Shown: positions 8,335-56,129 of the stretch, piece after piece
Layout of the letters: the number at the start of each line of letters is the position of its first letter
Position numbering within the stretch: position 1 is the first letter of the stretch
NCBI GenBank assembly: GCA_949287595.1
Contig: CASEGV010000001.1
Coordinates: 129,982-193,981, forward strand
Length of the DNA: 64,000 bases
Source of the DNA: an uncultured Mycoplasmatota bacterium
Lineage (GTDB): Bacteria > Bacillota_I > Bacilli_A > RF39 > UBA660
Reading direction: 5' to 3'
Made by a program: the position numbers and the translations under genes
The notes under the pieces: generated by a model
Seen by the model: only the letters and a program-made list of their open reading frames with translations
The model's database searches: none
Told to the model about the DNA's origin: nothing

Positions 8335-9217
8335 CTGTAGAATGATTATATTCGTCATTATAATCATTCTTTACCAGGATATCTCTATCCTGCAAGACTA
8401 TATTATCAAAAACTAGGTTATCACAACACTAATCTTAGTTTTGTCCATAGTCGTTGAATTGAATTTATTATAAAAGTGGATTCTGTATTAAAAATTCTAA
8501 CTCATTATTATCAGATACTCTAGATTTTAAGAACTCATAAACTTCTTTTCTTACTGATAAGTCTAAGAATTCAGTATATCTAGTTCCATCCTCTGATAAT
8601 TTTGTATAATTTTGAAATTTAACAAATGTATCAAATTCAAGATCGGCTAAATCATTTGTTGGTCCTGATATGATTGCTATAACTTTACCACCTAAGATAT
8701 GATTCAAGTTAGGTAATTGATAATTCAGTCTTCTTTCCCAATTTTTTGAAAAACCAACCTTAATACTCATAGGAAATTTAACAAAGTATAGATAACCTTG
8801 TTCTCCTTGAAATTTATTATGCAGTAAAGTTCTGTTAGCTAGTCTCATATGCCACTCACTACCATATCCTTTACTATTTTTATCTAAAGAATTTGCTAAT
8901 CGTATATTAGCCATTCTTTGTCTTTTTTCTTCGCTAACATTCCACAACCCTATCTTAGAAGTTCCTTTATATCTTCCTTCAGCATGAAGTTGTTTCATGT
9001 GTTCAGATCGATTCCATGGAGTTGTAGAAGATAGTGTAGAAAATAAATTAATCCTAAATATCTTCATAAGCTCTTCTTCTATATTTACTATTCTGCTTTT
9101 ATAATAAATTCAACTGCTGATTATTAATTATAATTAATTTCCAGCAATACACAAAATTAAATAAATGTAAACTACATTTATTTCAGGATTTTCACCTAAC
9201 GTACCAGTGAAAAATCT
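8335..9217 (-). mobile_element. Group I intron 5 with GIY-YIG/T5orf172-like endonuclease ORF
   Basis: P ATTGCTGGAA (9139-9148), Q AATCAGCAG (9114-9122), R TTCAACGACTA (8448-8458), S GATAATATAGTCT (8395-8407), hairpins CAGGATA/TATCCTG and AATGATTATA/TATAATCATT. 6-bp P1: exon CGUACU with GGUACG (9200-9205). The intron ends ..CUACAG. Confidence 0.8.
8468..9067 (-). CDS. Intron-encoded putative homing endonuclease (GIY-YIG/T5orf172-like C-terminal domain)
   Basis: GYLYFVKFPMSIKVGFSKNWERRLNYQ resembles the GIY..YIG/T5orf172 core. Lies between Q and R of intron 5. Confidence 0.45.
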   Translation of the reverse strand: MKIFRINLFSTLSSTTPWNRSEHMKQLHAEGRYKGTSKIGLWNVSEEKRQRMANIRLANSLDKNSKGYGSEWHMRLANRTLLHNKFQGEQGYLYFVKFPMSIKVGFSKNWERRLNYQLPNLNHILGGKVIAIISGPTNDLADLEFDTFVKFQNYTKLSEDGTRYTEFLDLSVRKEVYEFLKSRVSDNNELEFLIQNPLL

Positions 9218-10350
9218 AGTACGATTTGTTTTTCCGCAAATTCTTTAAACATCTTTAAAGTTTCCGGATTATTATACTCTTCTTTTGTTGCTCTGAGAGC
9301 TTCTTCTTTAGTAAAATTTAATTCCTTCATTAAATAGTCTAAGAATCCTTCTCTACACATCTCATATGCAATATGAATAGGTATAGAGATTTCATCAATA
9401 GCTAATGTAGTACTAGGAATAATTGGACATCTAGCAGAGCTTTTTGTTCTTACTGAATAAAGATCACGTGCTAAATTTTCCTTAGAGGTATTTAAAAGTG
9501 CTGTAGCCTCTTTCTTACCTGTATTAAGAAGTGCTCTTAGAAGTGCTGTATATCTAACTTTCTCACCTGGAGTCTTAAATTTAGAAGTTACTTCTGCATA
9601 ATTTAAGTCATTAGATTTAGTATCTTCTACGCAACAAAGTCTAATTATAATAGAATACCAGATACTAAGTTTATGAGATCCCATTATCTTTTTGCCATTT
9701 TTTACACCAAGAGTAAAAGGTCTCATCATAGCTGGCTGTACTAAGTAATACCTATTAATCAACTTTTTATATTCTACGAGACGACCAGGAAAATGTTCTT
9801 CTATAATCTTCATAAGTCCTTCATAAGAACATTTAGATTCATCATCTATAAATTCAGAAATCTTAAGCTCTTTTGTAGTAGGATTATAATCAAACTGACA
9901 AGTATCAAATACTTTAATACCTAATTTCTTTGCTCCTCTCGCACTATAACCATTTCTTCTAAGATCATCCCCGAAGAAATCTAAAACTATTTTGCTTTCT
10001 TTAAATATATCTTCAAATAATTCTTTAAAGATATCAAAGCGCAAATCATTTAAATAATAGAAAGGCAATTCTATTCTGGCAAATCTTCTAAGTCCTTCTT
10101 CTCTAGAAAATACTCTAGCTCCACAATTAGGACAAGGTTCCATAGAAGGTTGTCGAATTTTTCCACAGATACATCTATCTTCCATAGGAGATCCGAATAT
10201 TTCGACATCATATACTCCACCGGAGATAGGTTGTATACCGTTATACTTTAAGTCTAAGTCTCTATGATTATAGAGAACTCTATCCTTTCCATCACTTTTA
10301 GTATAATCGATGATTGCTTCATCGGTTAGTAACTCAAGAGATACTGACAT
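9218..10350 (-). CDS. RNAP beta-prime-like subunit, exon 1 (N-terminal, Zn ribbon)
   Basis: GGVYDVEIFGSPMEDRCICGKIRQPSMEPCPNCGARVFSREEGLRRFARIELP aligns with the beta-prime N-terminal Zn-binding region (GLF..IFGP..DYEC.CGKYK..C..CGVEV..RRERMGHI). The exon ends ..QIV-CU. Confidence 0.8.
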
Positions 10351-10367
10351 AAAATAAATTTAAAAAA

Positions 10368-11465
10368 TTAATTAGATTTAACTATTTCTGAAACATCTTT
10401 CCAAATAATCTTAGTAGCTAGTTCAGAATCATTAGAATTTTCTTTAGACCATTCTTTATAAACTTGCTTTACATCTGCTATTGCATCAGAACGCGTTTTA
10501 TCTTTTAATCTTTCAAAAATTCCAGAATCTTTATCTACTACTACTTCAATTAAATCTGAAATAACATCTTGTGTAATAGCTCTAGAAGTATTAGTGAATC
10601 TTCCTCTGTATTCTCGATAAACTAATACATCATCATAAGTAAGATCTAGATCAGAATATTCTGAAGAAGATCGAATTTCAGCTGGTTCTTTATTAAACCA
10701 GGATAATTGTAATTTTCTTACTCTATCCGCTACTTGCTGTCTTCCCATCTCTTCATACTTCTTAGCTAGTTCTTCTACAATATCATACTTAGCTTTCATT
10801 ATCTTTCTTAAAGCTTCTTTAATCTGAGTATCATATTCTTTTGGCATTGTAGGACAATCTAATATCAAGTCATACATTCCAGAAGAAAATAGAAATATTA
10901 TAAAAGCAGGAATTTGTCTTTGCTTTCTTCTTCTAGATACAACAGAATCTTTAGAAAGATCTCTATTAGCTAAGAAATCTATAAATCTAGCAATTTGATT
11001 TCTGGCTTCCTCAGCATATGCTTTATTAAATCCAGAATCATCCTCATCTCTAAAGTCAATATCAACATCTTCACCTCTTAACATAGTATCAGGTGTATAG
11101 AGTGAATTGACCATTCTAGAGTGACCTTGCTTATGAAATAGATCTTTAATGATATTTCCAATAGTAGTAATTGATGTGTGCTTTGGATTAGCTTGAACTA
11201 TAGTAGTTACTGCATCTTCTATAGCATTACTAGTATCTTTTTTTCCAGCAGCAATAATATCATCGTATGCAGTAGATAACCAAATTTCATCTTTAGTCAT
11301 CTTACCCTGATACTGTGATTCATCTACTTTTTCTCTAGCTTCCTCCGCATCTTCAAGGCTAATACCAGAATCATCATTATTGTCAGAATCATCGTCATTG
11401 TCTTGCCCGAGATATCCTTGGTTTTCCAAGTCTTCCTCTTCATCTAACAAAAATTCGTCTTCCAT
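10368..11465 (-). CDS. Hypothetical protein with a strongly acidic N-terminus, directly upstream of beta-prime
   Basis: Track ORF. D/E-rich first ~60 aa. No catalytic motif recognised. Confidence 0.6.
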   Translation of the reverse strand: MEDEFLLDEEEDLENQGYLGQDNDDDSDNNDDSGISLEDAEEAREKVDESQYQGKMTKDEIWLSTAYDDIIAAGKKDTSNAIEDAVTTIVQANPKHTSITTIGNIIKDLFHKQGHSRMVNSLYTPDTMLRGEDVDIDFRDEDDSGFNKAYAEEARNQIARFIDFLANRDLSKDSVVSRRRKQRQIPAFIIFLFSSGMYDLILDCPTMPKEYDTQIKEALRKIMKAKYDIVEELAKKYEEMGRQQVADRVRKLQLSWFNKEPAEIRSSSEYSDLDLTYDDVLVYREYRGRFTNTSRAITQDVISDLIEVVVDKDSGIFERLKDKTRSDAIADVKQVYKEWSKENSNDSELATKIIWKDVSEIVKSN

Positions 11466-11968: not shown

Positions 11969-12868
11969 CTAAATTTCACATTCTGTTATTAACTTCTTAA
12001 ATTCTTCAAAATTTACTGTACATCCTGCTGCACATTTTTGTCCACTAAACCATCTATATCCTCCGCAACTAAATTCTGGACATTTATTAGTATCTTTATA
12101 CATACTTAAATTATAAACATCTGGACCTCTTCTGTTGCAACATATTACTACATCATAATTGTCTCTAACTGAGTTAAAAATATTACTAGTAAACTCGGTT
12201 GTTAGAATGCATATTCCTCTATATTTTCCAGCTACTTTAACATCAAAGGAATAAACTTTACAAGCACTGTTCCAACTTCTATCTAGATATTTAAGAATTA
12301 TTTCTCCTTCATGAATAATTTCATCTAAATCTATATTTTCAAATATTAGATTATTGAATGCTTGAGGGGATATCATAAAAGCTTTAATACTATACCTAGT
12401 TCTTAACCCATATTGAAACGGTAATATAATATTATCCCAAGAATATCTTGTTTTATCCCAAACATCATAACACCCTATAAATTCTACTACTTTTGGAGAT
12501 ATTAAAGTAGGGTAAAAATATTCCCAACAAAGTTCACATGCAGCTGTACCATCTCTTCTAAGTCCTTTTATATCTGAATAATTATTGGAATAAGAATTAT
12601 TGATTGCTGTAGTGTGATGATCTATCCAAATAACTTCGAAGTTATTTTGAGATTTTAAATAAATCATAACCTCTGGTGGAAATGATAAATCTACTAATAC
12701 TACTCTATTAAATTTTTCTAAATATTTAATATCAGGTATATCATCTCCGTAGGTCCATCCAAACAATTCAGTGATACATCCAATCTCTCTTGCAAATTTA
12801 TTTGCTATACTCCCAGAGAAAGCCCCATCAAAGTCTACCCTGTGATAAATTATTAATACTTTTTCCAT
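11969..12868 (-). CDS. DHH-family phosphoesterase
   Basis: Motifs HRVDFDGAFSG (DxD), VVLVDLS and IWIDHHTTA (DHH). Confidence 0.6.
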   Translation of the reverse strand: MEKVLIIYHRVDFDGAFSGSIANKFAREIGCITELFGWTYGDDIPDIKYLEKFNRVVLVDLSFPPEVMIYLKSQNNFEVIWIDHHTTAINNSYSNNYSDIKGLRRDGTAACELCWEYFYPTLISPKVVEFIGCYDVWDKTRYSWDNIILPFQYGLRTRYSIKAFMISPQAFNNLIFENIDLDEIIHEGEIILKYLDRSWNSACKVYSFDVKVAGKYRGICILTTEFTSNIFNSVRDNYDVVICCNRRGPDVYNLSMYKDTNKCPEFSCGGYRWFSGQKCAAGCTVNFEEFKKLITECEI

Positions 12869-26615: not shown

Positions 26616-26984
26616 TCAACATTTTCTTAAGTTAATTAATAATGAACTATTTTTCTCATCTATATAGACTTTATCCACTTCTTTTCCATCAAAAATTTTA
26701 TCATAAATTTTAAATACTCTAGAAATATTATTAATAGCAGCCCTCAATACTAATGTACTATTAAACACCTCTGTATATACCCTAAACGAGTGTCTAACTT
26801 CATCAAAAACTTTTTCATTAATAAATATATTTATAGAATTTTCTCCAACTTGTAAAACTATTATAAAAATTTCCCAATCAGTATTATTAAACTCACTAGT
26901 CACATTACTATTATTTCCATACATTAATAATAAAAAATCTTCAACTGGGGTTTCTTGATTAATATCTGTTAATTCTCTAAGCAT
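26616..26984 (-). CDS. Hypothetical protein, tandem paralogue A (MLREL family)
   Basis: Starts MLRELTDI and ends ..IDEKNSSLLINLRKC. Similar ends and length to 26992..27372. Confidence 0.55.
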   Translation of the reverse strand: MLRELTDINQETPVEDFLLLMYGNNSNVTSEFNNTDWEIFIIVLQVGENSINIFINEKVFDEVRHSFRVYTEVFNSTLVLRAAINNISRVFKIYDKIFDGKEVDKVYIDEKNSSLLINLRKC

Positions 26985-26991
26985 ATTTTTA

Positions 26992-27372
26992 TTATTTTAG
27001 AATTATTAATATTGACTCATCTTTAATATCTATATCTATCTTCTGTATATCTCTTTCATAAAATATTTGATCAATTACTTTAACAGTATTAGATATTGGC
27101 CCAAGACATAACGATACTAGTAGACTATTAGGATCATCTTTACTAATCTTAAAATCTAGTTTATATGGATTTAATAAAACAATATCACTATTATAATAAA
27201 CCTTTACTTTATTATCGTCTACTTGAAATAAAGTAATACAATCTTTCAAATTTAATTTCTCTAATTCAAGTTTAGAAAAATCATTAACACCATATTCTAC
27301 ATTACTCGAAGAAAAAGTATTTATATAGTACCCAACTTTAACAAATTCGATTTTATTTAATTCTCTTAACAT
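26992..27372 (-). CDS. Hypothetical protein, tandem paralogue B (MLREL family)
   Basis: Starts MLRELNKI and ends ..IDIKDESILIILK. It is the first gene of the leftward block. Confidence 0.55.
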   Translation of the reverse strand: MLRELNKIEFVKVGYYINTFSSSNVEYGVNDFSKLELEKLNLKDCITLFQVDDNKVKVYYNSDIVLLNPYKLDFKISKDDPNSLLVSLCLGPISNTVKVIDQIFYERDIQKIDIDIKDESILIILK

Positions 27373-27389
27373 AAATTTCTTAATATTAT

Positions 27390-27410
27390 CATTTATAAGG
27401 ATTATAAACT
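27390..27410 (-). promoter_or_regulatory. Promoter-like motif (class 1: AATCCTTATAAATG), leftward
   Basis: The minus strand reads TTTATAATCCTTATAAATG, 17 nt before ATG 27372. It is inverted relative to the plus-strand copy at 27421-27444. Confidence 0.4.
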
Positions 27411-27420
27411 ATATAATTTA

Positions 27421-27444
27421 AATCCTTAAAATCCTTATAAATGG
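27421..27444 (+). promoter_or_regulatory. Promoter-like motif (class 1), rightward
   Basis: AATCCTTAAAATCCTTATAAATGG. The same motif recurs upstream of at least seven minus-strand genes. Confidence 0.4.
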
Positions 27445-27449
27445 ACATA

Positions 27450-27533
27450 GTTAAAGGCAATTAGTAAAACTGTCGTCTAAAGCATTATTAAATTATGATT
27501 AGCACTGTTTGTGAAAATGGTGCTAATTTTTTT
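27450..27533 (+). ncRNA. Candidate small RNA 1 (hairpin U1 plus T7 tract)
   Basis: Follows the promoter-like motif. Hairpin TTAGCAC (27499-27505) / GTGCTAA (27520-27526) with loop TGTTTGTGAAAATG, then TTTTTTT (27527-27533). No ORF. Confidence 0.3.
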
Positions 27534-27535
27534 CT

Positions 27536-27569
27536 TTCCTTTTATAAAACACTGAAACTCCTATATATG
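27536..27569 (+). promoter_or_regulatory. Promoter-like motif (class 2: TTCCTT-N20-TATATATG)
   Basis: TTCCTT 27536-27541, exactly 20 nt, then TATATATG 27562-27569. The same architecture occurs at 27712-27745 and 28524-28558. Confidence 0.4.
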
Positions 27570-27574
27570 TGAAA

Positions 27575-27711
27575 ATAAAAACAAAAAGAGGTACTTGTGA
27601 AAGTACTATGGGTTTTATCTTTCGTATTATCAGTATCTTTTGTGAAAACCGTACTGATAGTTTGATTTATTATTTTTAATTGTTAATCCCGCAGCGGCGG
27701 GATTTTTTTTC
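27575..27711 (+). ncRNA. Candidate small RNA 2 (hairpins U2, U3 plus intrinsic terminator)
   Basis: U2 GTACTT-GTGA-AAGTAC (27591-27606). U3 TATCAGTA (27628-27635) / TACTGATA (27652-27659) with loop TCTTTTGTGAAAACCG. Ends at the GC-rich terminator. No ORF. Confidence 0.3.
27685..27711 (+). terminator. Rho-independent terminator
   Basis: AATCCCGC-AGCG-GCGGGATT followed by T8. It is the most GC-rich stem in this region. Confidence 0.75.
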
Positions 27712-27745
27712 TTCCTTCTACTATCAACTAAAAGCCTTATATATG
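27712..27745 (+). promoter_or_regulatory. Promoter-like motif (class 2), abutting the start codon of 27747..28028
   Basis: TTCCTT 27712-27717, 20 nt, TATATATG 27738-27745, ATG at 27747. This implies a near-leaderless mRNA if it is a promoter. Confidence 0.35.
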
Positions 27746-27746
27746 T

Positions 27747-28028
27747 ATGGAAAGATATTTATTAAATGCATTTTCATTGCAGATGATAAACTTTCCAGCG
27801 GTAGTGAACTTTGAAGAAATAGATTCTCTACAGGATGGTTTGACCTCAGCTATTGGACATGCTGATACTGCTGCAATTCTGGGAGTACCAATGAACCGAA
27901 TTAACGTTAAGTTATCTAAAGGTGATATTGCGTACGTAGCTCAGTTGCAGGGAGGCAGATTACCAGAAGGGTCTACAAAACTTCCGGATGGATTTAGCTT
28001 CAAGTTCATTAAGGTTACCGTTGGATAA
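27747..28028 (+). CDS. acrIII-1: DUF1874 / AcrIII-1-like viral ring nuclease (candidate anti-type III CRISPR)
   Basis: YLLNAFSLQM, SAIGHADTA, KGDIAYVAQLQGGRLPEG resemble my recollection of SIRV1 gp29/STIV B116 (..LANAFSINML.., ..SIGH.., ..LYVVQ..RLEEG). About 93 aa as in that family. Visibly GC-richer than the flanks. Confidence 0.65.
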   Translation: MERYLLNAFSLQMINFPAVVNFEEIDSLQDGLTSAIGHADTAAILGVPMNRINVKLSKGDIAYVAQLQGGRLPEGSTKLPDGFSFKFIKVTVG

Positions 28029-28196
28029 TCTGAGTGAAATGCATCATTGGTTGCTGAACCAATTTAGACAAATCAGATAGAGTATAATAGTAGAAAAGGC
28101 TCAATAAATACGGACACTACTAGTATTTTAATAAAATTAATTAATATAATAAAATTTTTAAACTTTTAAAGAATACAATAACTTTAATTTAAATAT

Positions 28197-28448
28197 ATGA
28201 AAAAATTTATAAATAATCTGGAAGGTTTATTTTTATTTCCAGGTATAGCAGTTTGGTTTACTGTTCTTTTAATCGGAGTTTTAATAAAGAATAGTAGTTC
28301 AATAAATACATTATGTAATTTAAGAAGTTCTATTGATGATAATAATATAGGTATGTACTTAAAAGAATCTAAGATAATAAGAGATTTTTATATATTAAGT
28401 ATATTAATATATTTATATATCGGATTTATCATAGTAACTTTTTCATAA
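28197..28448 (+). CDS. Small membrane protein (two hydrophobic helices)
   Basis: LFLFPGIAVWFTVLLIGVLI and FYILSILIYLYIGFIIVTF. Terminator directly downstream. Confidence 0.5.
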   Translation: MKKFINNLEGLFLFPGIAVWFTVLLIGVLIKNSSSINTLCNLRSSIDDNNIGMYLKESKIIRDFYILSILIYLYIGFIIVTFS

Positions 28449-28482: not shown

Positions 28483-28523
28483 TCCCTTATTTCTGAAGAC
28501 AAAGGCGTTAGCCCTTTCACTCT

Positions 28524-28558
28524 TTCCTTTTAAACTTGAATGAAACCCCTATAAAGTG
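28524..28558 (+). promoter_or_regulatory. Promoter-like motif (class 2 variant)
   Basis: TTCCTT 28524-28529, 20 nt, TATAAAGTG 28550-28558. Confidence 0.35.
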
Positions 28559-28586
28559 TTATAAGAAATTATTCTATTAAAATTGA

Positions 28587-28618
28587 TTCTCTCCCTCCCC
28601 TTCAAAGGAGGGAGAGAA
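28587..28618 (+). other. GC-rich 12-bp hairpin in a 350-nt non-coding gap
   Basis: TTCTCTCCCTCC-CCTTCAAA-GGAGGGAGAGAA. A T-rich tract (CTTTTTCTCTTTTTTG) begins about 20 nt later. Confidence 0.5.
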
Positions 28619-48002: not shown

Positions 48003-51000
48003 ATGGCATTAAAATTTGCAGATAGATTAGTGTCTAATAATCCTAAAAGTTATGGGATTGCGAGAGCTATAGAAATCTCAGGACACAAAACCGTATCATC
48101 TCTAGAAGCTTTATATAAAATACCAGATTGTATATTGTCTGATAGTGGAGATAATACTGGAGATGATGCAATTGGTCAAGAATGGTATGTAGTTAGTGAA
48201 GCATCTAATTATAAATTAATTAGTTGGGATAATCGTCATTCAGGAGAGGGTTGGAAATCCTCTTTAGGTGAATATGTTACCGAAGATCAATTACAAGAAG
48301 AATTAAAGAAAAAACAAGATAAGTTAACAGCCGGTACAGGAATTAATATTTCAGAAGATAATATCATTTCTTGTACGTTGGATACTGAAATTTTTATATT
48401 TGTTGATGAACTTCCTCCTTTAAAAGAAGCAAAGTTTAATAAGATATATGTCTTAAGAAAAACAGAAAATGAAGGAGAGAATCAAAAATATATAGAATAT
48501 ATTCTTACTACTGTCTATGATGAGGCTGGATTTGAATCTAGAGCTTGGGAAAAGTTAGGAGAATATGATTTAGGTATCGAATTAGAGCCGTATCTTAAGA
48601 AGGAAGATGCTGAAAAATTATATGTAAAGAAAACTGATATAATTAATTCTTTAGAAGGAGGTGAATCTGAACAAGTATTAGGAGCATCTCAAGGAAAAGA
48701 GTTAAAAGATCAGATAGATTCATTAAATGAAAATACAGTTCATAGCATCACCGCTACAGAAGGAAAGGGTATTATTATAGAAGGAACAAAAAATGATCCT
48801 ACTATTGGAATACTTAGAGACGAAAGTAGTGAAGATTTTTTAAGTTTATCTGAAAACGGGCTAAAATTAAGCGGGGTTCAAGAAGCCATTGATGCAGGAG
48901 ATAATAAAGTAAGAGAAGAGTATAAGTCTGATCTAGATGAAATGCAATCTCATACAGAATATCTCTATAATATCAATACTCTTTTTCCTAATGAAGGAAT
49001 GGAAGATAATAAGAATCAATGGACTTTAACTAGAGCCATATCTAAATTAGATTCACTATTATCAGATGAAGAAAGATTAGCAGGTATTAAAATAAAATTT
49101 TTATCTAATGAAGATAAGTGGAGAACTTATACTTTCTATGGAGAATCTTCCGAAATATTAGATGAATCTAAATGGAACTATGATCTAACTTCTAAAGATT
49201 TTATTGAATTAGCTACAACAAATTTACCTACAGCCACACAAGAAGCTAATGGTACTATGTCTAAGGAAGATAAGAAAAAATTCGATACTCTTTCTGAAGG
49301 CATAGAGGAAGGTGTTTCTATAGTAGATAAGATTAATGAAATCGTAGAAGATACTAAAGAAGTAATAGATAATTATACTGTTAATGGTTATAAGATATCT
49401 GAAAATCCTGTCTTAAATAAAGAAGATGTTGGTCTTGGAAACGTAGATAATACTTCTGATATGGATAAACCTATATCTACTGCTACTCAAGAAGCTTTAG
49501 ATGAATTAATTTCACATACTGAAGTATTATTTAATATAGTTGATCTCTTTCCAGGAGAAGGACAAGGAGATAATAAAGATCAATGGAATTTACAATCCGC
49601 AATATCTAGACTAAGTGGTACAATTGATAGTAAATACAAAGTTCCAGGAGTTAAGATTAAATTAATAACTGAGGATGGAAAGTGGAGAACTTATACTTTC
49701 TATGGAGAAGTATTTACTGACGTAAGTTCTTGGAAATATGATCTAACTTCTAAAGATTTTACTGAATTAGCAACTGTAGATTTACCTACCGCTACACAAG
49801 AGGCTAACGGTACTATGTCTAAGGAAGATAAGAAGAAATTAGATACTCTTTCCGAAGGTATAGAAGAAGGCGTTTCTATAGTAGATAAGATTAACGAAAT
49901 TGTAGGAGATACTAAAGAAGTAATAGATAATTATACTGTTAATGGTTATAAGATATCTGAAAATCCTGTCTTAAATAAAACTGACATTGGCCTTGGAAAT
50001 GTTACAGACGATGCTCAAGTTAAGCGCTCTGAGATGGGAGTTGCTAATGGTGTTGCTACCCTTGATGATAATGGAAAAGTACCAGATTCACAACTTCCTG
50101 ATTCTGTATTAGGAAATGTTAAGTTTATGGGTACTTGGAACGCTTCTACAAATACTCCTGAACTAGTAGAAGGAAATGAAGAAGATAATGGACATTACTA
50201 TATCGTTGATGTTCCAGGATCTCAATTTGGATTTGATTTTGACGCAGGAGATTGGGTAATTAATAGTAATGGATCTTGGTCTAAGGTAGATAATGTAGAT
50301 GCAGTAAAATCTGTTAATGGTAAAGATGGAATAGTAGAATTAGTTATTGAAGATATTCCAGATTTAAGAGATGAATTAGATTCTAAAGCTTCTCAGGTAG
50401 ATTTGGAAGCTCATACTTCTAATACTGAAAATCCTCATAATGTTACTAAAGAACAGGTTGGCTTAGGAAATGTAGATAATACATCTGATATGGATAAGCC
50501 GATTTCTACTGCTACATTAGATGCATTGAAGAAATTACAAGAGCATTCGGATATAGTATATAATGTTACATCTCTTTTCCCAGGAGAGGGACAAGGAGAT
50601 AATAAAGATCAGTGGACTATTCAATTAGCCGTATCTAAATTAGATAGTTATGCTGATTCTAAATATAGAGTACCTGGAGTTAAGTGTAAATTTTTAGATA
50701 CTACAGGAGTATGGAGAACTTATACTTACTATGGGGAAATATTTGCTGATTCTAATAGTTGGAGTTATGATCTAACTTCTAAAGATTTTACTGAATTAGC
50801 AACTACAAATTTACCTACAGCTACACAGGAAGCTAATGGTACTATGTCTAAGGAAGATAAGAAGAAATTAGATACTCTTTCTGAAGGTATTGATGAAAAT
50901 ACTTCGATTAAAGATATAGTAGATGAAGCCGTAAATGTAGCAAAAGAAGAATTACAAGGAAATATTGATACAGTAGATTCTAAAGTAGAGGCTCATATTG

Positions 51001-54000
51001 CAGATAAGTCTAATCCTCATCAAGTAACAAAAGAACAGGTAGGATTAGGTAATGTTACTAATGATGCTCAAGTTAAAAGAGCTGAAATGGGTATAGCAGA
51101 AGGAGTTGCTACACTTGATGAATCTGGAAAAGTTCCTAGTTCTCAATTACCTGATTCAGTATTAGGAAATGTTAGATATTCAGGAACTTGGGATGCTTCT
51201 AAAAATACACCAGAACTAACAGATAATTCTCCAGAAAATTCTGGAAAATATTATGTTGTTTCGATTGCTGGATCTCAATTCGGTATAAATTTCGAACCTG
51301 GAGATTGGGTAATTAATAACGGTGGAAATTGGGCTAAGGTAGATAATGTAGATGCAGTAAAATCTGTTAATGGAAAGTCTGGAGAAGTAGTAATTGAAAT
51401 TGCAGATATTAGTGGTTTAACAGATGAATTGAATTCTAAAGCAGCACAATCTGATTTAGATTCAGTTAAAGAACTAACTAATGAATTAAATGATTCATTA
51501 GCTCAACCTGATGGTATTGCTACTCTGGATTCTAATGGAAAATTGGTAGAATCTCAAATTCCAAGTAAAGCAATTAATGTACTAGAAGGTAAGTATATTA
51601 ATGAAACTACTTTTAATGATAGATCAGATTCTCCATACACTCCAGCATTAGGAATAATTTATGTAGATATTACTGATGGATCTAATAATAATATATATCG
51701 TTGGAATGGTACAGCGTTTGTTAAACTTTGCCAAACTGGAGATATAGAGCAAGATATATTAGATCACATTGATAATAAATCTAATCCTCATGAAGTAACT
51801 AAAGAACAGATAGGTCTTGAAAATGTTACTAATGATGCTCAAGTTAAGAGAACAGAAATGGGAGTTGCTGAAGGAGTCGCTACTCTTGATATAAATGGAA
51901 AAATTCCAACATGGCAATTACCAGGTCAAGTAGATGAAGTATTTGGTATCGATCATTTTGTAGATAGCAAAGATCAAATTCCTACCTCTAGATTAGATAT
52001 CGGTACTACTTATTATGCAGAACTTGAGAAGAAAATATTCACTGCTATTAGTGATACATCTCTAGATGAGGGAAAGACTCCTGAAAAAGGAGTAATATAC
52101 TCAAATAGAGATACTAATATAATTTATAGATGGGATGGTACTGATTTAGTAGAAATTGGAAATCCTATACACTTAGGAGAAATAGCTGGAACAGCATATC
52201 CTGGAGATAAAGGTAAAGAAACTACTGATAAAGTAAATTCTCATTTAGAAGATTTCGAAAATCCACATCAAGTTACTAAAGCTCAAGTTGGTTTAGGAGA
52301 TGTAGATAATACAAGTGACGTTAATAAACCAGTATCTAAAGCTCAACAAGCAGCATTAGATGCAGTTAAAGATGAACTTAAACAAAATATTGATTCTAAT
52401 AAAGAAGCTACAGATAATTATACTATTAATGGTTATAAGATATCTGAAAATCCTGTATTAGATAAAGAAGATATTGGTTTAAGTGAAGTTGATAATACAA
52501 GTGACTTGAATAAACCTATATCTACCGCTACACAGGAAGCTTTAGATGTATTAACTAGTGGATTAAAAGCTATTAATGATTCTTTAGCACAACCTAATGG
52601 TATTGCTACTCTAGATTCTAATGGAAAATTAGTTCAGGCACAAATACCTAAGGAAGCTATAAATGTATTGGAAGGTAAATACATTAATGAAACTACTTTT
52701 AATGATAAACAGGGACATCCATATGAGCCTATTACAGGAGTTATTTATGTAGATATTACTTCTGGATTGGGGAATAAAATGTATCGTTGGGATGGTTCTA
52801 TCTTTGCTGAATTAAATCAACTTAATGATGTTGATTCAAAAATTGATGAACATATTTCAGATAAAAATAATCCTCACGAAGTTACTAAAGAACAAGTAGG
52901 TTTAGGTAACGTTACTAATGATGCTCAAGTTAAACGTTCTGAGATGGGTGCTCTTAACGGAGTTGCTACTCTTGATGATAATGGAAAAATTCCAGATTCA
53001 CAACTTCCTGGAAAAGTAGTTCAAGTATTTGGTATTGATCATTTTGTAGATAGTAAAGATCAAATTCCTACTTCTAGATTAGTAATTGGTACTACTTACT
53101 ACGTAAAAGAAGATAAGAAGATTTATACAGCTATTAGTGATACAACTGTTGATGAAGGAAAGACTCCTGAAAAAGGAACTATTTATTCTAACAGAGATAC
53201 TAATTATATCTATAGATGGGATGGTACTGATTTAGTAGAAATTGGAAATCCTATACATTTAGGAGAAACTGAAGGTACAGCTTATGAAGGAAATAAAGGT
53301 AAAGAAACTACTGACAAAGTAAATGAACATGTAGCTAATACTGAAAATCCTCATAATGTTACTAAAGCTCAAGTAGGTTTAGCTAATGTAGATAATACAT
53401 CTGATATAGATAAACCTATATCTACTGCTACACAAGAAGCTTTAGATAAAATAACATCTGATGTAGAATCTCATACTACTAATAAATCTAATCCTCATGA
53501 AGTAACAAAAGCTCAAGTAGGTTTAGGTAATGTAGATAATACTGCAGATTTAGATAAACCAGTTTCTAATGCTACTAAAGAATTAATAAATAGTACGAAA
53601 GATAGTTTAACTCAAACTATTACACTTCATATAGAAAATAAAAATAATCCTCACAGAGTAACGAAGGAACAAGTAGGTTTAGCAAATGTAGATAATACAG
53701 CGGACTTAAATAAACCAGTATCTATAGCTCAACAAGCAGCAATAGATAAGGTTAAGAGTGAAATTCTTCCAGAGGTTGATAAAGTAAATTCATCATTAAC
53801 TGCTCATGTTAGTAGTGAAAATAATCCTCATAAAGTTACTAAAGCTCAGATTGGTTTAGGTAACGTTGATGATACTAGTGATGAAAATAAGCCTGTATCA
53901 TTAGCTCAAGAAGCAAGAATTTCTAAAGTTGAATCTGATTTAACTGCTAAAATTACTATTCATACTTCAGATAAGAATAATCCTCATGAAGTTACTAAAG

Positions 54001-56129
54001 CTCAGATTGGTTTAGGAGATGTAGATAATACAAGAGATATAGATAAACCTATATCTACTGCTACACAAAGAGCATTAGATGAATTAGATAGTAGATTAAG
54101 TGAATCTGTAACTACTCATATTGCAGATAAATCTAATCCTCATCAAGTAACAAAAGAACAAGTAGGATTAAGCAATGTAACTAATGACGCTCAGGTTAAA
54201 CGTTCTGAGATGGGAGTTGCTAGTGGTGTTGCTACTCTTGATGAATCTGGAAAAGTTCCTAGTTCTCAATTGCCTTCCTTCGTAGATGATATTGTTGAAG
54301 CAGATAGTCTTGATGAATTCCCAGAAGTTGGAGAAGTTGGAAAGATCTATTTAGCCAAAGATACTAATATCATATATCGTTGGAGTGGATCTAAATACGT
54401 TGAGATATCTTCTTCTTTAGCACTTGGTGAAACTTCTAGTACAGCATATCCTGGAGATAAAGGTAAAGCTACTACTGATAAATTAAATGAGCATATAGCT
54501 AATACTGAAAATCCTCATCAGGTAACAAAAGAACAGGTAGGTTTAGCTAATGTAGATAATACTTCTGATATGGATAAACCTGTATCTACTGCTACTCAAA
54601 CAGCGATAGATAAGGTTAAAGAAGATTTAGAGCAAAGTATTGGAGAAGGAAGTGAAACACTTACTTCACATATAGAAAATAAATCTAATCCTCATGAAGT
54701 AACAAAAGAACAGGTAGGATTAGGCAATGTAGATAATACAGCTGATAAAGATAAACCTGTATCTACTGCTCAGTCAGAAGCTATTAGTGCAGCTAAAGCA
54801 GAAGTAACTAAAAGTATTAATGATCATATTGCTGATGTAAGAAATCCTCATCAGGTAACGAAAGAACAAGTTGGTTTAGGTAATGTAGATAATACTAGTG
54901 ACTTAAATAAACCAGTTTCTAATGCTACTAGAGAAGCTTTATCAGCATTAAGTGATAGTGTTACTCAAATAGTAAATGCTCATGCTCAAAATTATAGCAA
55001 TCCTCATCAGGTAACAAAGGCTCAAGTTGGTCTTGATAGAGTAGACAATACTAATGACTTAGAGAAACCAGTCTCTAATGCAACTCAAGAATTAGTAAAT
55101 AAGATTAAGTTAGATCTTACTACTACAATTACATCTCAAGGAGAAATCTTAAATGCTCATGTTGCAGATAAGAATAATCCTCATAATGTTACTGCTTTCC
55201 AAATTGGATTAGGAAATGTGAATAATACAGCTGATATGGATAAACCTGTATCTACTGCTACACAAATAGCTCTTGATAAGAAAGCAGATTTAGTAGATGG
55301 TAAGGTTCCTACTACTCAATTACCTGATCAAGTTATTCATAGTTTACATTATCGTGGTTTCTGGGATGCTGATATTAATTCTCCTAAGTTAGAGAATGAT
55401 TTAGGAAATAATGCGCAAGAAGGAGATTACTATATTGTAAGAGGAAAAGGTGTAAGATTTGGTTATGAGTTTTTACCTTATGATATTATATTTAATGCTT
55501 ATGGTACTTGGTATCGATTAAGTGGATCAAATCAAAGAGATGAAATTACTAGATTTGATATTACTTCATTTACAGCAAATAAATATGAATGTGAAATTGG
55601 AGAAAATGCTACTATTAGATTTAACTGGGAATATAATGGTTTAGGTGAAGGAGAAAATCCTGAATCTCAAAATATTAACGGTAATGTAGCGGAACCTGCA
55701 TCTAGAACGTTATCAATCACTGACGTTTTAACTGATACTACATTTGTATTATCTGCCGGATATAGAGGTATTTCAGCTAGTGCAGAATTGCAAGTTAAAT
55801 TCTATAGTAAAGTATATGTAGGAACTTCAACTAATAATACTGTTAGTGATTCTGAATTACAAGCTATGACTTCATTCTTTGATAATGAGAAAAATAGTCT
55901 TCCTTTAACTAAGCTTGATTGTACAGGTGGAAAATATATTTATGTTGCAATACCTAAAGTGAATGCAACTAATTATACTATCTATGCAAATAATATCTTA
56001 GTTACTGATGTTGTTGAAACTAGTAGAACTGTTGTAAATGCTTCAGGAGGAAAAGCTGAATATACAATCTACCGATTAAGCAATAAGTATAATGGAATAT
56101 TGAATATTGAAGTTAAATTGAATAAATAA
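48003..56129 (+). CDS. Giant repetitive tail fibre protein (2708 aa)
   Basis: By my count, 16 copies of NPHxVTKxQ(V/I)GLxNVxNT(S/A)DxxKP(V/I)S, several DAQVKRxEMGVAxGVATLDxxGK(V/I)PxSQLP units, and three ~150-190-aa repeats. The N-terminal domain is shared with 57588..59603. Confidence 0.85.
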   Translation: MALKFADRLVSNNPKSYGIARAIEISGHKTVSSLEALYKIPDCILSDSGDNTGDDAIGQEWYVVSEASNYKLISWDNRHSGEGWKSSLGEYVTEDQLQEELKKKQDKLTAGTGINISEDNIISCTLDTEIFIFVDELPPLKEAKFNKIYVLRKTENEGENQKYIEYILTTVYDEAGFESRAWEKLGEYDLGIELEPYLKKEDAEKLYVKKTDIINSLEGGESEQVLGASQGKELKDQIDSLNENTVHSITATEGKGIIIEGTKNDPTIGILRDESSEDFLSLSENGLKLSGVQEAIDAGDNKVREEYKSDLDEMQSHTEYLYNINTLFPNEGMEDNKNQWTLTRAISKLDSLLSDEERLAGIKIKFLSNEDKWRTYTFYGESSEILDESKWNYDLTSKDFIELATTNLPTATQEANGTMSKEDKKKFDTLSEGIEEGVSIVDKINEIVEDTKEVIDNYTVNGYKISENPVLNKEDVGLGNVDNTSDMDKPISTATQEALDELISHTEVLFNIVDLFPGEGQGDNKDQWNLQSAISRLSGTIDSKYKVPGVKIKLITEDGKWRTYTFYGEVFTDVSSWKYDLTSKDFTELATVDLPTATQEANGTMSKEDKKKLDTLSEGIEEGVSIVDKINEIVGDTKEVIDNYTVNGYKISENPVLNKTDIGLGNVTDDAQVKRSEMGVANGVATLDDNGKVPDSQLPDSVLGNVKFMGTWNASTNTPELVEGNEEDNGHYYIVDVPGSQFGFDFDAGDWVINSNGSWSKVDNVDAVKSVNGKDGIVELVIEDIPDLRDELDSKASQVDLEAHTSNTENPHNVTKEQVGLGNVDNTSDMDKPISTATLDALKKLQEHSDIVYNVTSLFPGEGQGDNKDQWTIQLAVSKLDSYADSKYRVPGVKCKFLDTTGVWRTYTYYGEIFADSNSWSYDLTSKDFTELATTNLPTATQEANGTMSKEDKKKLDTLSEGIDENTSIKDIVDEAVNVAKEELQGNIDTVDSKVEAHIADKSNPHQVTKEQVGLGNVTNDAQVKRAEMGIAEGVATLDESGKVPSSQLPDSVLGNVRYSGTWDASKNTPELTDNSPENSGKYYVVSIAGSQFGINFEPGDWVINNGGNWAKVDNVDAVKSVNGKSGEVVIEIADISGLTDELNSKAAQSDLDSVKELTNELNDSLAQPDGIATLDSNGKLVESQIPSKAINVLEGKYINETTFNDRSDSPYTPALGIIYVDITDGSNNNIYRWNGTAFVKLCQTGDIEQDILDHIDNKSNPHEVTKEQIGLENVTNDAQVKRTEMGVAEGVATLDINGKIPTWQLPGQVDEVFGIDHFVDSKDQIPTSRLDIGTTYYAELEKKIFTAISDTSLDEGKTPEKGVIYSNRDTNIIYRWDGTDLVEIGNPIHLGEIAGTAYPGDKGKETTDKVNSHLEDFENPHQVTKAQVGLGDVDNTSDVNKPVSKAQQAALDAVKDELKQNIDSNKEATDNYTINGYKISENPVLDKEDIGLSEVDNTSDLNKPISTATQEALDVLTSGLKAINDSLAQPNGIATLDSNGKLVQAQIPKEAINVLEGKYINETTFNDKQGHPYEPITGVIYVDITSGLGNKMYRWDGSIFAELNQLNDVDSKIDEHISDKNNPHEVTKEQVGLGNVTNDAQVKRSEMGALNGVATLDDNGKIPDSQLPGKVVQVFGIDHFVDSKDQIPTSRLVIGTTYYVKEDKKIYTAISDTTVDEGKTPEKGTIYSNRDTNYIYRWDGTDLVEIGNPIHLGETEGTAYEGNKGKETTDKVNEHVANTENPHNVTKAQVGLANVDNTSDIDKPISTATQEALDKITSDVESHTTNKSNPHEVTKAQVGLGNVDNTADLDKPVSNATKELINSTKDSLTQTITLHIENKNNPHRVTKEQVGLANVDNTADLNKPVSIAQQAAIDKVKSEILPEVDKVNSSLTAHVSSENNPHKVTKAQIGLGNVDDTSDENKPVSLAQEARISKVESDLTAKITIHTSDKNNPHEVTKAQIGLGDVDNTRDIDKPISTATQRALDELDSRLSESVTTHIADKSNPHQVTKEQVGLSNVTNDAQVKRSEMGVASGVATLDESGKVPSSQLPSFVDDIVEADSLDEFPEVGEVGKIYLAKDTNIIYRWSGSKYVEISSSLALGETSSTAYPGDKGKATTDKLNEHIANTENPHQVTKEQVGLANVDNTSDMDKPVSTATQTAIDKVKEDLEQSIGEGSETLTSHIENKSNPHEVTKEQVGLGNVDNTADKDKPVSTAQSEAISAAKAEVTKSINDHIADVRNPHQVTKEQVGLGNVDNTSDLNKPVSNATREALSALSDSVTQIVNAHAQNYSNPHQVTKAQVGLDRVDNTNDLEKPVSNATQELVNKIKLDLTTTITSQGEILNAHVADKNNPHNVTAFQIGLGNVNNTADMDKPVSTATQIALDKKADLVDGKVPTTQLPDQVIHSLHYRGFWDADINSPKLENDLGNNAQEGDYYIVRGKGVRFGYEFLPYDIIFNAYGTWYRLSGSNQRDEITRFDITSFTANKYECEIGENATIRFNWEYNGLGEGENPESQNINGNVAEPASRTLSITDVLTDTTFVLSAGYRGISASAELQVKFYSKVYVGTSTNNTVSDSELQAMTSFFDNEKNSLPLTKLDCTGGKYIYVAIPKVNATNYTIYANNILVTDVVETSRTVVNASGGKAEYTIYRLSNKYNGILNIEVKLNK
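48951..50900 (+). repeat. Three long intragenic repeats (units start near 48951, 49516 and 50544)
   Basis: Each unit reads H(T/S)(E/D)..YN(I/V)..LFP(N/G)EG..DNK(N/D)QW..KWRTYTFYGE..YDLTSKDF.ELAT..LPTATQEANGTMSKEDKKK.DTLSEGI. DNA stretches 49195-49440 and 49745-49990 are about 90% identical. Confidence 0.8.

Follow-up and report, generated by a model that had tools for sequence, protein, structure and literature searches.

The open reading frame (ORF) at 27747-28028 on the plus strand of the window, by which we mean the whole 64-kb stretch of DNA analysed here, is virtually certain to be a member of the DUF1874/AcrIII-1 family. We propose that it encodes a functional viral ring nuclease that cleaves cyclic tetra-adenylate (cA4) and so counters host type III CRISPR-Cas, a reading to which we give a probability of roughly 0.8. 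Its parts are not equally firm: by analogy with relatives, cA4 nuclease activity of the product is highly probable, whereas a true anti-CRISPR role in natural infection is favoured with less assurance, being the least certain step, as it depends on the host and its signalling chemistry and in view of the late expression of SIRV2 gp37. As in characterised members, two subunits would dimerise around one cA4 molecule, His38 of each would protonate the leaving group, and the ring would be cut in a metal-free reaction into two A2>P halves. Removal of cA4 would switch off the cA4-activated CARF/SAVED effectors of the host type III CRISPR-Cas system, enabling the phage to evade RNA-triggered defence. 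We infer dimerisation, cA4 specificity, catalysis, expression timing and a natural host that signals with cA4. The features referred to below are as follows.

27390-27443, both strands: back-to-back pair of the 13-mer ATCCTTATAAATG, at 27390-27402 (minus, facing the leftward operon) and 27431-27443 (plus), forming a divergent control region
27685-27704, plus strand: intrinsic terminator of the preceding short unit, with an 8-bp G+C-rich stem and a T-run
27702-27746, plus strand: promoter-like copy of a 45-nt direct repeat present in three copies, ending at the DUF1874 ATG
27747-28028, plus strand: DUF1874/AcrIII-1-family ring nuclease gene, 93 aa, assigned by ORF, Pfam, PHROG, PDB and AlphaFold2/Foldseek evidence
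28028-28078, plus strand: nested 3' hairpin, outer UCUGA/UCAGA and inner AUUGGUU/AACCAAU, conserved in loci L002-L004
28084-28120, plus strand: conserved 3' element, ATAATAGTAGAAAAGG followed by CACTAC
28197-28448, plus strand: downstream 83-aa ORF with two hydrophobic segments

The ATG of the 93-codon ORF is the first possible start after an in-frame stop, so an N-terminal extension is impossible. The preliminary description had placed the ORF in DUF1874 on the strength of the segments YLLNAFSLQM, SAIGHADTA and KGDIAYVAQLQGGRLPEG, which are present in the translation exactly as quoted, and both profile and structural comparison bear the assignment out. The product scores 36.7 bits (E 4.9e-9) against Pfam PF08960 (STIV_B116-like, formerly DUF1874), above the gathering score of 26, with residues 4-76 aligned on profile positions 2-87 of 101; it also matches phrog_5063 (E 9.3e-14) and, among PDB sequences, SIRV1 ORF114/gp29 (2x4i, 6scf), AFV3-109 (2j6b) and STIV B116 (2j85). 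An AlphaFold2 model of the monomer, built with a 59-sequence alignment, has a mean pLDDT of 94.6 and a pTM of 0.83. When the model was compared with the PDB using Foldseek, the best 16 matches were all AcrIII-1, DUF1874 or Csx1-Crn2 structures (6scf, 2x4i, 2j85, 2j6b, 8y7f, 8y7g; TM 0.66-0.81), the rest having E values above about 1, such that the model matches folds of this family only. Within the wider family, natural tandem duplications give single-chain 'dimers' of about 214-234 aa (e.g. P0125, P0182, P0183, P0190), which would be consistent with a two-domain functional unit, and some variants (P0127, P0129, P0134, P0135) carry a Cys-rich insertion that resembles a zinc ribbon and separates the N-terminal strand from the SAIGH motif.

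In the active site of SIRV1 gp29, H47 serves as general acid and R85 as the lock of the closed dimer, while N8, S11, N13, S49, T50, R66 and Q81 contact cA4 (10.1101/778746). Counting along the printed PDB-sequence alignment, H47 and R85 correspond to the identical residues H38 and R71, while N8, S11, T50, R66 and Q81 are retained as N7, S10, T41, R51 and Q66; N13 and S49 are changed, to Q12 and D40, respectively. Six of the eight cA4-contacting side chains (N7, S10, T41, R51, Q66 and R71) are thus identical to those in gp29. The 59-sequence alignment shows no variation at S10 and R51 and at least 90% conservation at N7, H38, D40, Q66, R71 and E74; H38 is invariant in family alignment A3. H38 is accordingly the predicted general acid, with N7, S10, T41, R51 and Q66 as predicted cA4 contacts. 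The catalytic His proposed at the outset is therefore found where it was expected. The acidic residue proposed alongside it fares less well, because although E74 (gp29 E88) is conserved and lies, with R71, in the GGRLPEG lid loop, the AcrIII-1 literature examined assigns it no part in catalysis. Beyond the lid loop, and outside the Pfam match, residues 84-92 form a β-strand in the model, in contrast to gp29, where a helix follows the loop (10.1101/778746).

The Q12 and D40 changes and the β-strand C terminus count against the ring nuclease reading, and could be taken to mean that the protein degrades or sequesters a different nucleotide, i.e. cA3, cA6, a CBASS product or SAM-AMP. That D40 is at least 90% conserved in the bacterial/phage subfamily and that the C-terminal lid is unlike those of the archaeal structures would fit such a role, as would the possible Bacteroidota host suggested by the scarcity of Shine-Dalgarno sites (see below). 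SAM-AMP signalling is known in Bacteroidota; the type III-B system of Bacteroides fragilis signals with SAM-AMP, which a cA4 nuclease should leave unaffected. The Q12 and D40 replacements are, however, subfamily-wide, and the protein of phage THSA-485A, which belongs to the same subfamily (HADTA, GGRLPEG, C terminus), is cA4-specific in vivo. Since that active protein has the same β-strand C terminus, the difference from gp29 is no argument against activity. The ring nucleases so far surveyed associate, in all cases, with cA4 effectors only. A substrate other than cA4 therefore appears very improbable, and cA4 cleavage is the reading that we retain.

The gene is clearly maintained. Copies encoding proteins 96-99% identical occur on several 140-370-kb contigs, and copies about 78-83% identical on related contigs of 345, 312 and 300 kb, as well as on rumen-type metagenome fragments. 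For the DUF1874 gene dN/dS is 0.12 relative to L002 and 0.05-0.08 between closer pairs, i.e. it is under strong purifying selection. The small size and atypical composition of the ORF might have suggested a decaying or chance reading frame without function in this phage; the intact catalytic motifs, the dN/dS values of 0.05-0.12 between orthologues, and the recurrence of the protein at 96-99% identity on 140-370-kb contigs and at 79-83% in related huge phages effectively refute that view, which retains a negligible probability.

The only window ORFs with matches in the related huge-phage loci are DUF1874 (79-83%) and a metallophosphatase fragment (38.6%), and no relative of the phage GroEL outside its species-level cluster exceeds 63% identity. 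The contrast between the 79-83% identity of DUF1874 and the values for the other shared gene (38.6%) and GroEL (at most 63%) could reflect a recently exchanged mobile cassette. We reject this explanation because the synonymous sites of the gene are diverged relative to L002 (dS 0.72) and saturated relative to L005-L009; strong purifying selection explains the high identity of the copies.

The composition of the gene had been described as foreign, and it does stand out: with a GC content of 0.390 it exceeds both the window as a whole (0.283) and its immediate flanks (0.20-0.25); just 0.47% of 282-bp windows attain this level, and among the 68 window ORFs it ranks first both for GC (z = 3.1) and for GC3 (0.323 versus a mean of 0.150, z = 4.5). 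Across loci, however, the gene itself is near-constant (GC 0.39-0.44, GC3 0.32-0.39) whereas the background varies. It is an outlier where background GC3 is 0.15 (the window) or 0.24 (L002), but not where it is 0.33-0.35 (L005/L006), so the gene is conspicuous only in the lowest-GC phages. Unrelated elements, including an 18-kb contig with RepL/HTH genes and a 94-kb contig, carry 76-80% identical copies, and copies with 63-73% identity are present in metagenome-assembled genomes (MAGs) of Bacteroidales, Erysipelotrichaceae, Treponema and Desulfovibrio. These occurrences in unrelated elements and MAGs make horizontal spread among gut and rumen mobile elements a well supported conclusion. It is plausible that this phage lineage acquired the gene from a GC-richer pool long ago, with selection on codon choice as a possible alternative. 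Horizontal acquisition, as originally suggested, hence stands as plausible from composition, but not as a recent event, since the gene is common to related huge phages in which its synonymous sites are diverged or saturated.

The exact DUF1874 protein was found on a 370,915-bp ENA contig, and the window encodes tail-fibre proteins and a head-closure-like protein, which together indicate that the carrier is a huge tailed phage of about 371 kb, uncultured and of gut/rumen type; the gene is thus located in the viral or mobile-element context that characterises AcrIII-1. Other window genes encode GroEL, GroES, ligase-like, Band_7 and metallophosphatase proteins. The ORF at 48003-56129 (plus strand) encodes a highly repetitive 2708-aa protein that matches dozens of tail-fibre/minor-tail PHROGs, in up to 16 stretches, and is followed 3' by two further tail-fibre proteins, one with a Peptidase_S74 chaperone domain. 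A megablast search of window positions 20-40 kb against GenBank phages came back empty, which means that none of the phage genomes deposited there is a near relative. Relatives of the phage GroEL (23660-25285, minus strand), with identities of up to 63%, occur on many 280-391-kb contigs, suggesting that huge, GroEL-bearing phages form a large clade. One of these contigs is labelled 'MAG: Bacilli bacterium' in NCBI, probably a binning artefact given the lack of Shine-Dalgarno sites in the phage.

With respect to the host, a Shine-Dalgarno-like core precedes only 4 of 63 window ORFs, an under-representation relative to the 11% background, and a hint at a host that initiates translation without Shine-Dalgarno guidance, possibly a member of the Bacteroidota. 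The standard genetic code yields long ORFs across the window, in which no tRNA genes were found. The 'Jug' gut phages, known from a preprint, have genomes of 360-402 kb, 27-30% GC, the standard code and Bacteroides/Phocaeicola hosts; the window is compatible with this group, and membership is plausible. The preprint makes no mention of a ring nuclease. The window also encodes a DHH-family phosphoesterase (11969-12868, minus strand; phrog_4771, E 2.5e-22; Pfam DHH 29.8 bits, just over threshold), for which no sequence relative was found in the PDB. DHH enzymes include nanoRNases and NrN, which degrades SAM-AMP in Bacteroides type III-B systems. The DHH protein may likewise degrade a signal, as a second enzyme of that kind, or may just serve nucleotide metabolism.

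The preliminary description located the gene at an early divergent control region. It does lie where the gene arms diverge, but the word 'early' goes too far. To its left all ORFs of at least 150 aa (2274-26611), and two smaller ones extending to 27372, are on the minus strand; the DUF1874 gene is the first of the rightward arm, beside the point of divergence. The leftward arm is headed by two adjacent paralogous ORFs (26616-26984 and 26992-27372, minus strand; 122 and 126 aa), both of which start with MLRELxxI and neither of which has a Pfam or PHROG match. Across the window there are three exact copies of the 13-mer ATCCTTATAAATG (0.02 expected), namely the back-to-back pair and one before the Band_7 gene.

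The region contains a 45-nt direct repeat, present at 27526-27570, 27702-27746 and 28514-28558, the second copy of which ends at the DUF1874 ATG. This copy contains the core CCTTATATATG (27735-27745), with a TTCC box about 19 nt upstream. The same bipartite signal, TTCC and CCTTATATATG separated by about 17-20 nt, is found upstream of the orthologues in L002-L009 and L106; in L002-L004 it abuts the ATG, and in L005-L009 and L106 it lies about 50 nt upstream and is followed by a GUGA-capped hairpin. The 11-mer CCTTATAWATG has 34 matches in the huge-phage loci, compared with one in the other 98 loci fetched, and a promoter-like motif also precedes the Band_7 gene. A sigma-70 scan returned fewer promoter-like sites than in shuffled sequences. 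We read CCTTATAWATG as a putative lineage-specific promoter with its 3' end near the transcription start, which would imply that the DUF1874 mRNA is leaderless or has a very short leader. The first 56 nt of this putative mRNA (27745-27800, plus strand) can form a stable hairpin (-16.8 kcal/mol, z = -4.35) in which GGAAAG, just after the AUG, pairs with CUUUCC at codons 15-16; the hairpin is partly kept in L002, but not in L005-L009, which have a 5' UTR instead.

Between the divergence point and the gene are two short plus-strand units, 27444-27535 and 27571-27712, each running from a promoter-like motif through GUGA-capped (GNRA-type) hairpins to an intrinsic terminator. The terminators that close them are at 27497-27528 and 27685-27704, the latter being predicted to shield the DUF1874 unit from upstream transcription. 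The folds of both units are more stable than those of shuffled sequences (z = -2.7 and -3.3, respectively). No convincing ORF was found in either, there being only a 36-aa ORF with a GTG start and a 23-aa ORF, and an Rfam search of the small units gave nothing near threshold. The units are candidates for phage small RNAs encoded beside the ring nuclease gene. We considered whether the 45-nt repeats and hairpins might be CRISPR-repeat mimics, i.e. RNA anti-CRISPRs, and set this aside because conserved TTCC and CCTTATAWATG boxes, a variable spacer and recurrence before many genes are better explained by a promoter.

At the 3' end, the hairpin at 28028-28078 is weak (z = -0.41), has no T-run and was not called as a terminator. 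The suggestion that the gene forms its own promoter-to-hairpin unit therefore holds for the promoter-like repeat that ends at the ATG, but not for the hairpin, which is not a convincing terminator. Beyond it lies the 16-nt ATAATAGTAGAAAAGG, followed 7-15 nt on by CACTAC, which is perfectly conserved 3' of DUF1874 in L002, L003, L005-L009 and L106. ATAATAGTAGAAAAGG is kept in all the huge-phage orthologous loci despite 3' flanks that cannot be aligned and saturated synonymous sites, is unique in the window, and is absent from the unrelated DUF1874 loci L108-L110. Its candidate roles are as a promoter of the following gene, a binding site or an RNA element. We also asked whether it is a general or mobile signal and set this aside, as none of its 73 exact matches in IMG/VR is accompanied by DUF1874 or by the extended motif, indicating that these matches are due to chance.

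The downstream ORF at 28197-28448 has a counterpart of 84/85 aa at the same position in L002-L004 (6465-6719 in L002), with 37% identity over 52 aa and a pairwise E of 1e-4, and it gives a weak Pfam holin match below threshold. No terminator was called between it and the DUF1874 gene; the two are possibly co-transcribed by read-through, and may constitute a conserved gene pair. About 30 nt after the third copy of the 45-nt repeat (28514-28558) there is a perfect 12-bp G+C-rich palindromic hairpin (28587-28618), called as a minus-strand terminator. The region 28514-28618 could represent one more very short unit, or a stop that works in both directions.

The genetic context also bears on whether the benefit of the protein to the phage is in fact anti-CRISPR. 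A genuine DUF1874 protein, perhaps a cA4 nuclease in vitro, could act late in infection, bind and inhibit a host protein, or blunt a cA4-dependent pathway other than CRISPR. There is precedent in SIRV2 gp37, a close AcrIII-1 homologue which, owing to its middle/late expression, had no Acr effect in native infection and for which a second activity, binding and inhibition of a host lysine methyltransferase, is reported (10.1101/2023.01.10.523387). The sharing of the promoter-like motif with genes of no assigned class, such as the Band_7 gene, is compatible with such a role, and 76-83% conservation of the protein across unrelated mobile elements would fit an additional conserved interaction surface. 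Set against these points, conservation falls on the catalytic and ligand-binding site, the closest tested relative, from THSA-485A, acts as an Acr in a heterologous assay, and the gene, preceded by its own signal, comes first in its arm at the divergent control region. On balance we regard a benefit unrelated to CRISPR as unlikely, and favour a ring nuclease directed against type III immunity.

The target of AcrIII-1, a characterised anti-CRISPR, is a second messenger and not a Cas protein, and among CRISPR types it is type III that has been reported to halt jumbo phages that form a nucleus. AcrIII-1 is the commonest phage ring nuclease, yet is present in only 36 of 28,114 phage genomes. The conservation of so rare a gene in gut and rumen phages of about 300-370 kb is thus indicative of a host defence that these phages face. 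The literature searched yielded no paper that connects jumbo or huge phages with a ring nuclease of their own. The ORF is short, and its product should be an easily expressed candidate enzyme. A broader proposal, which as a whole we think doubtful, is that huge gut/rumen phages of 300-370 kb, a whole clade with probable Bacteroidota hosts, maintain AcrIII-1 under unusually strong selection, so that it is better conserved than their GroEL. It would head an arm and belong to a conserved cassette that has a lineage-specific promoter and 3' elements, beside promoter-to-terminator units that look non-coding. If this were correct, cA4-based type III signalling would be a dominant pressure on these huge phages, and the neighbouring small structured RNAs might be part of a combined protein-plus-RNA counter-defence module.

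Comparison with known systems places the ORF closest to Tsac_2833 (YP_006546274.1, annotated DUF1874) of THSA-485A, with 56% identity over ORF residues 4-92. The two proteins, both encoded by bacteriophages, share NAFSLQM, SAIGHADTA, VAQL.GGRLPEGST.LP.GFSFKF and the β-strand C terminus; the ORF product is 9 aa shorter as it lacks two short insertions. In an E. coli assay, the THSA-485A gene abolished cA4-dependent, but not cA6-dependent, type III immunity (10.1101/778746). The carriers differ considerably, THSA-485A being a 42-kb phage of a thermophilic Firmicute, in contrast to the phage of about 371 kb without Shine-Dalgarno sites described here.

The structurally characterised archaeal virus proteins are more distant. 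SIRV1 gp29 (2X4I, apo; 6SCF, with cA4) has the same fold as the ORF model (Foldseek E 4e-7, TMq 0.72) and the same catalytic His, lock Arg and six of eight ligand-contacting side chains, but is only about 26-29% identical. At 114 aa it is also the longer protein; it has inserts, and its lid loop leads into a C-terminal helix. Both gp29 and YddF have been shown to cleave cA4 to A2>P with no need for a metal (10.1101/778746). STIV B116 (2J85), which gives the best structural superposition on the model (TMq 0.81, rmsd 2.9 Å), and AFV3-109 (2J6B), the founding DUF1874 structures, match the ORF in sequence with E values of 1e-4 to 8e-4 and likewise 26-29% identity; both are from archaeal viruses.

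The cellular counterpart of these enzymes is Crn2, which carries out the same chemistry on cA4 as the DUF1874/AcrIII-1 ring nucleases. Crn2 and the Csx1-Crn2 fusion (Marinitoga, 8Y7F/8Y7G) have the same domain and fold as the ORF model (Foldseek probability 1.0, TMq about 0.68). Crn2 is, however, encoded in, or fused to components of, type III CRISPR loci, and regulates the host's own response, whereas the ORF is stand-alone and phage-borne, with no cas or CRISPR features near it and no CRISPR context in the 64-kb window. A distant DUF1874 copy (39% identity) on a Thiohalocapsa sp. chromosome (locus L030, 8001-8243) adjoins a CRISPR-like array (8500-10500), and is a cellular, Crn2-type arrangement that contrasts with the phage context of the window. 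Bacteriophages had been reported to carry AcrIII-1 before, and the ORF adds a member to that family rather than a new kind of system. What is new is the setting, which is biologically sensible, for a known ring nuclease family whose mechanism is unchanged.
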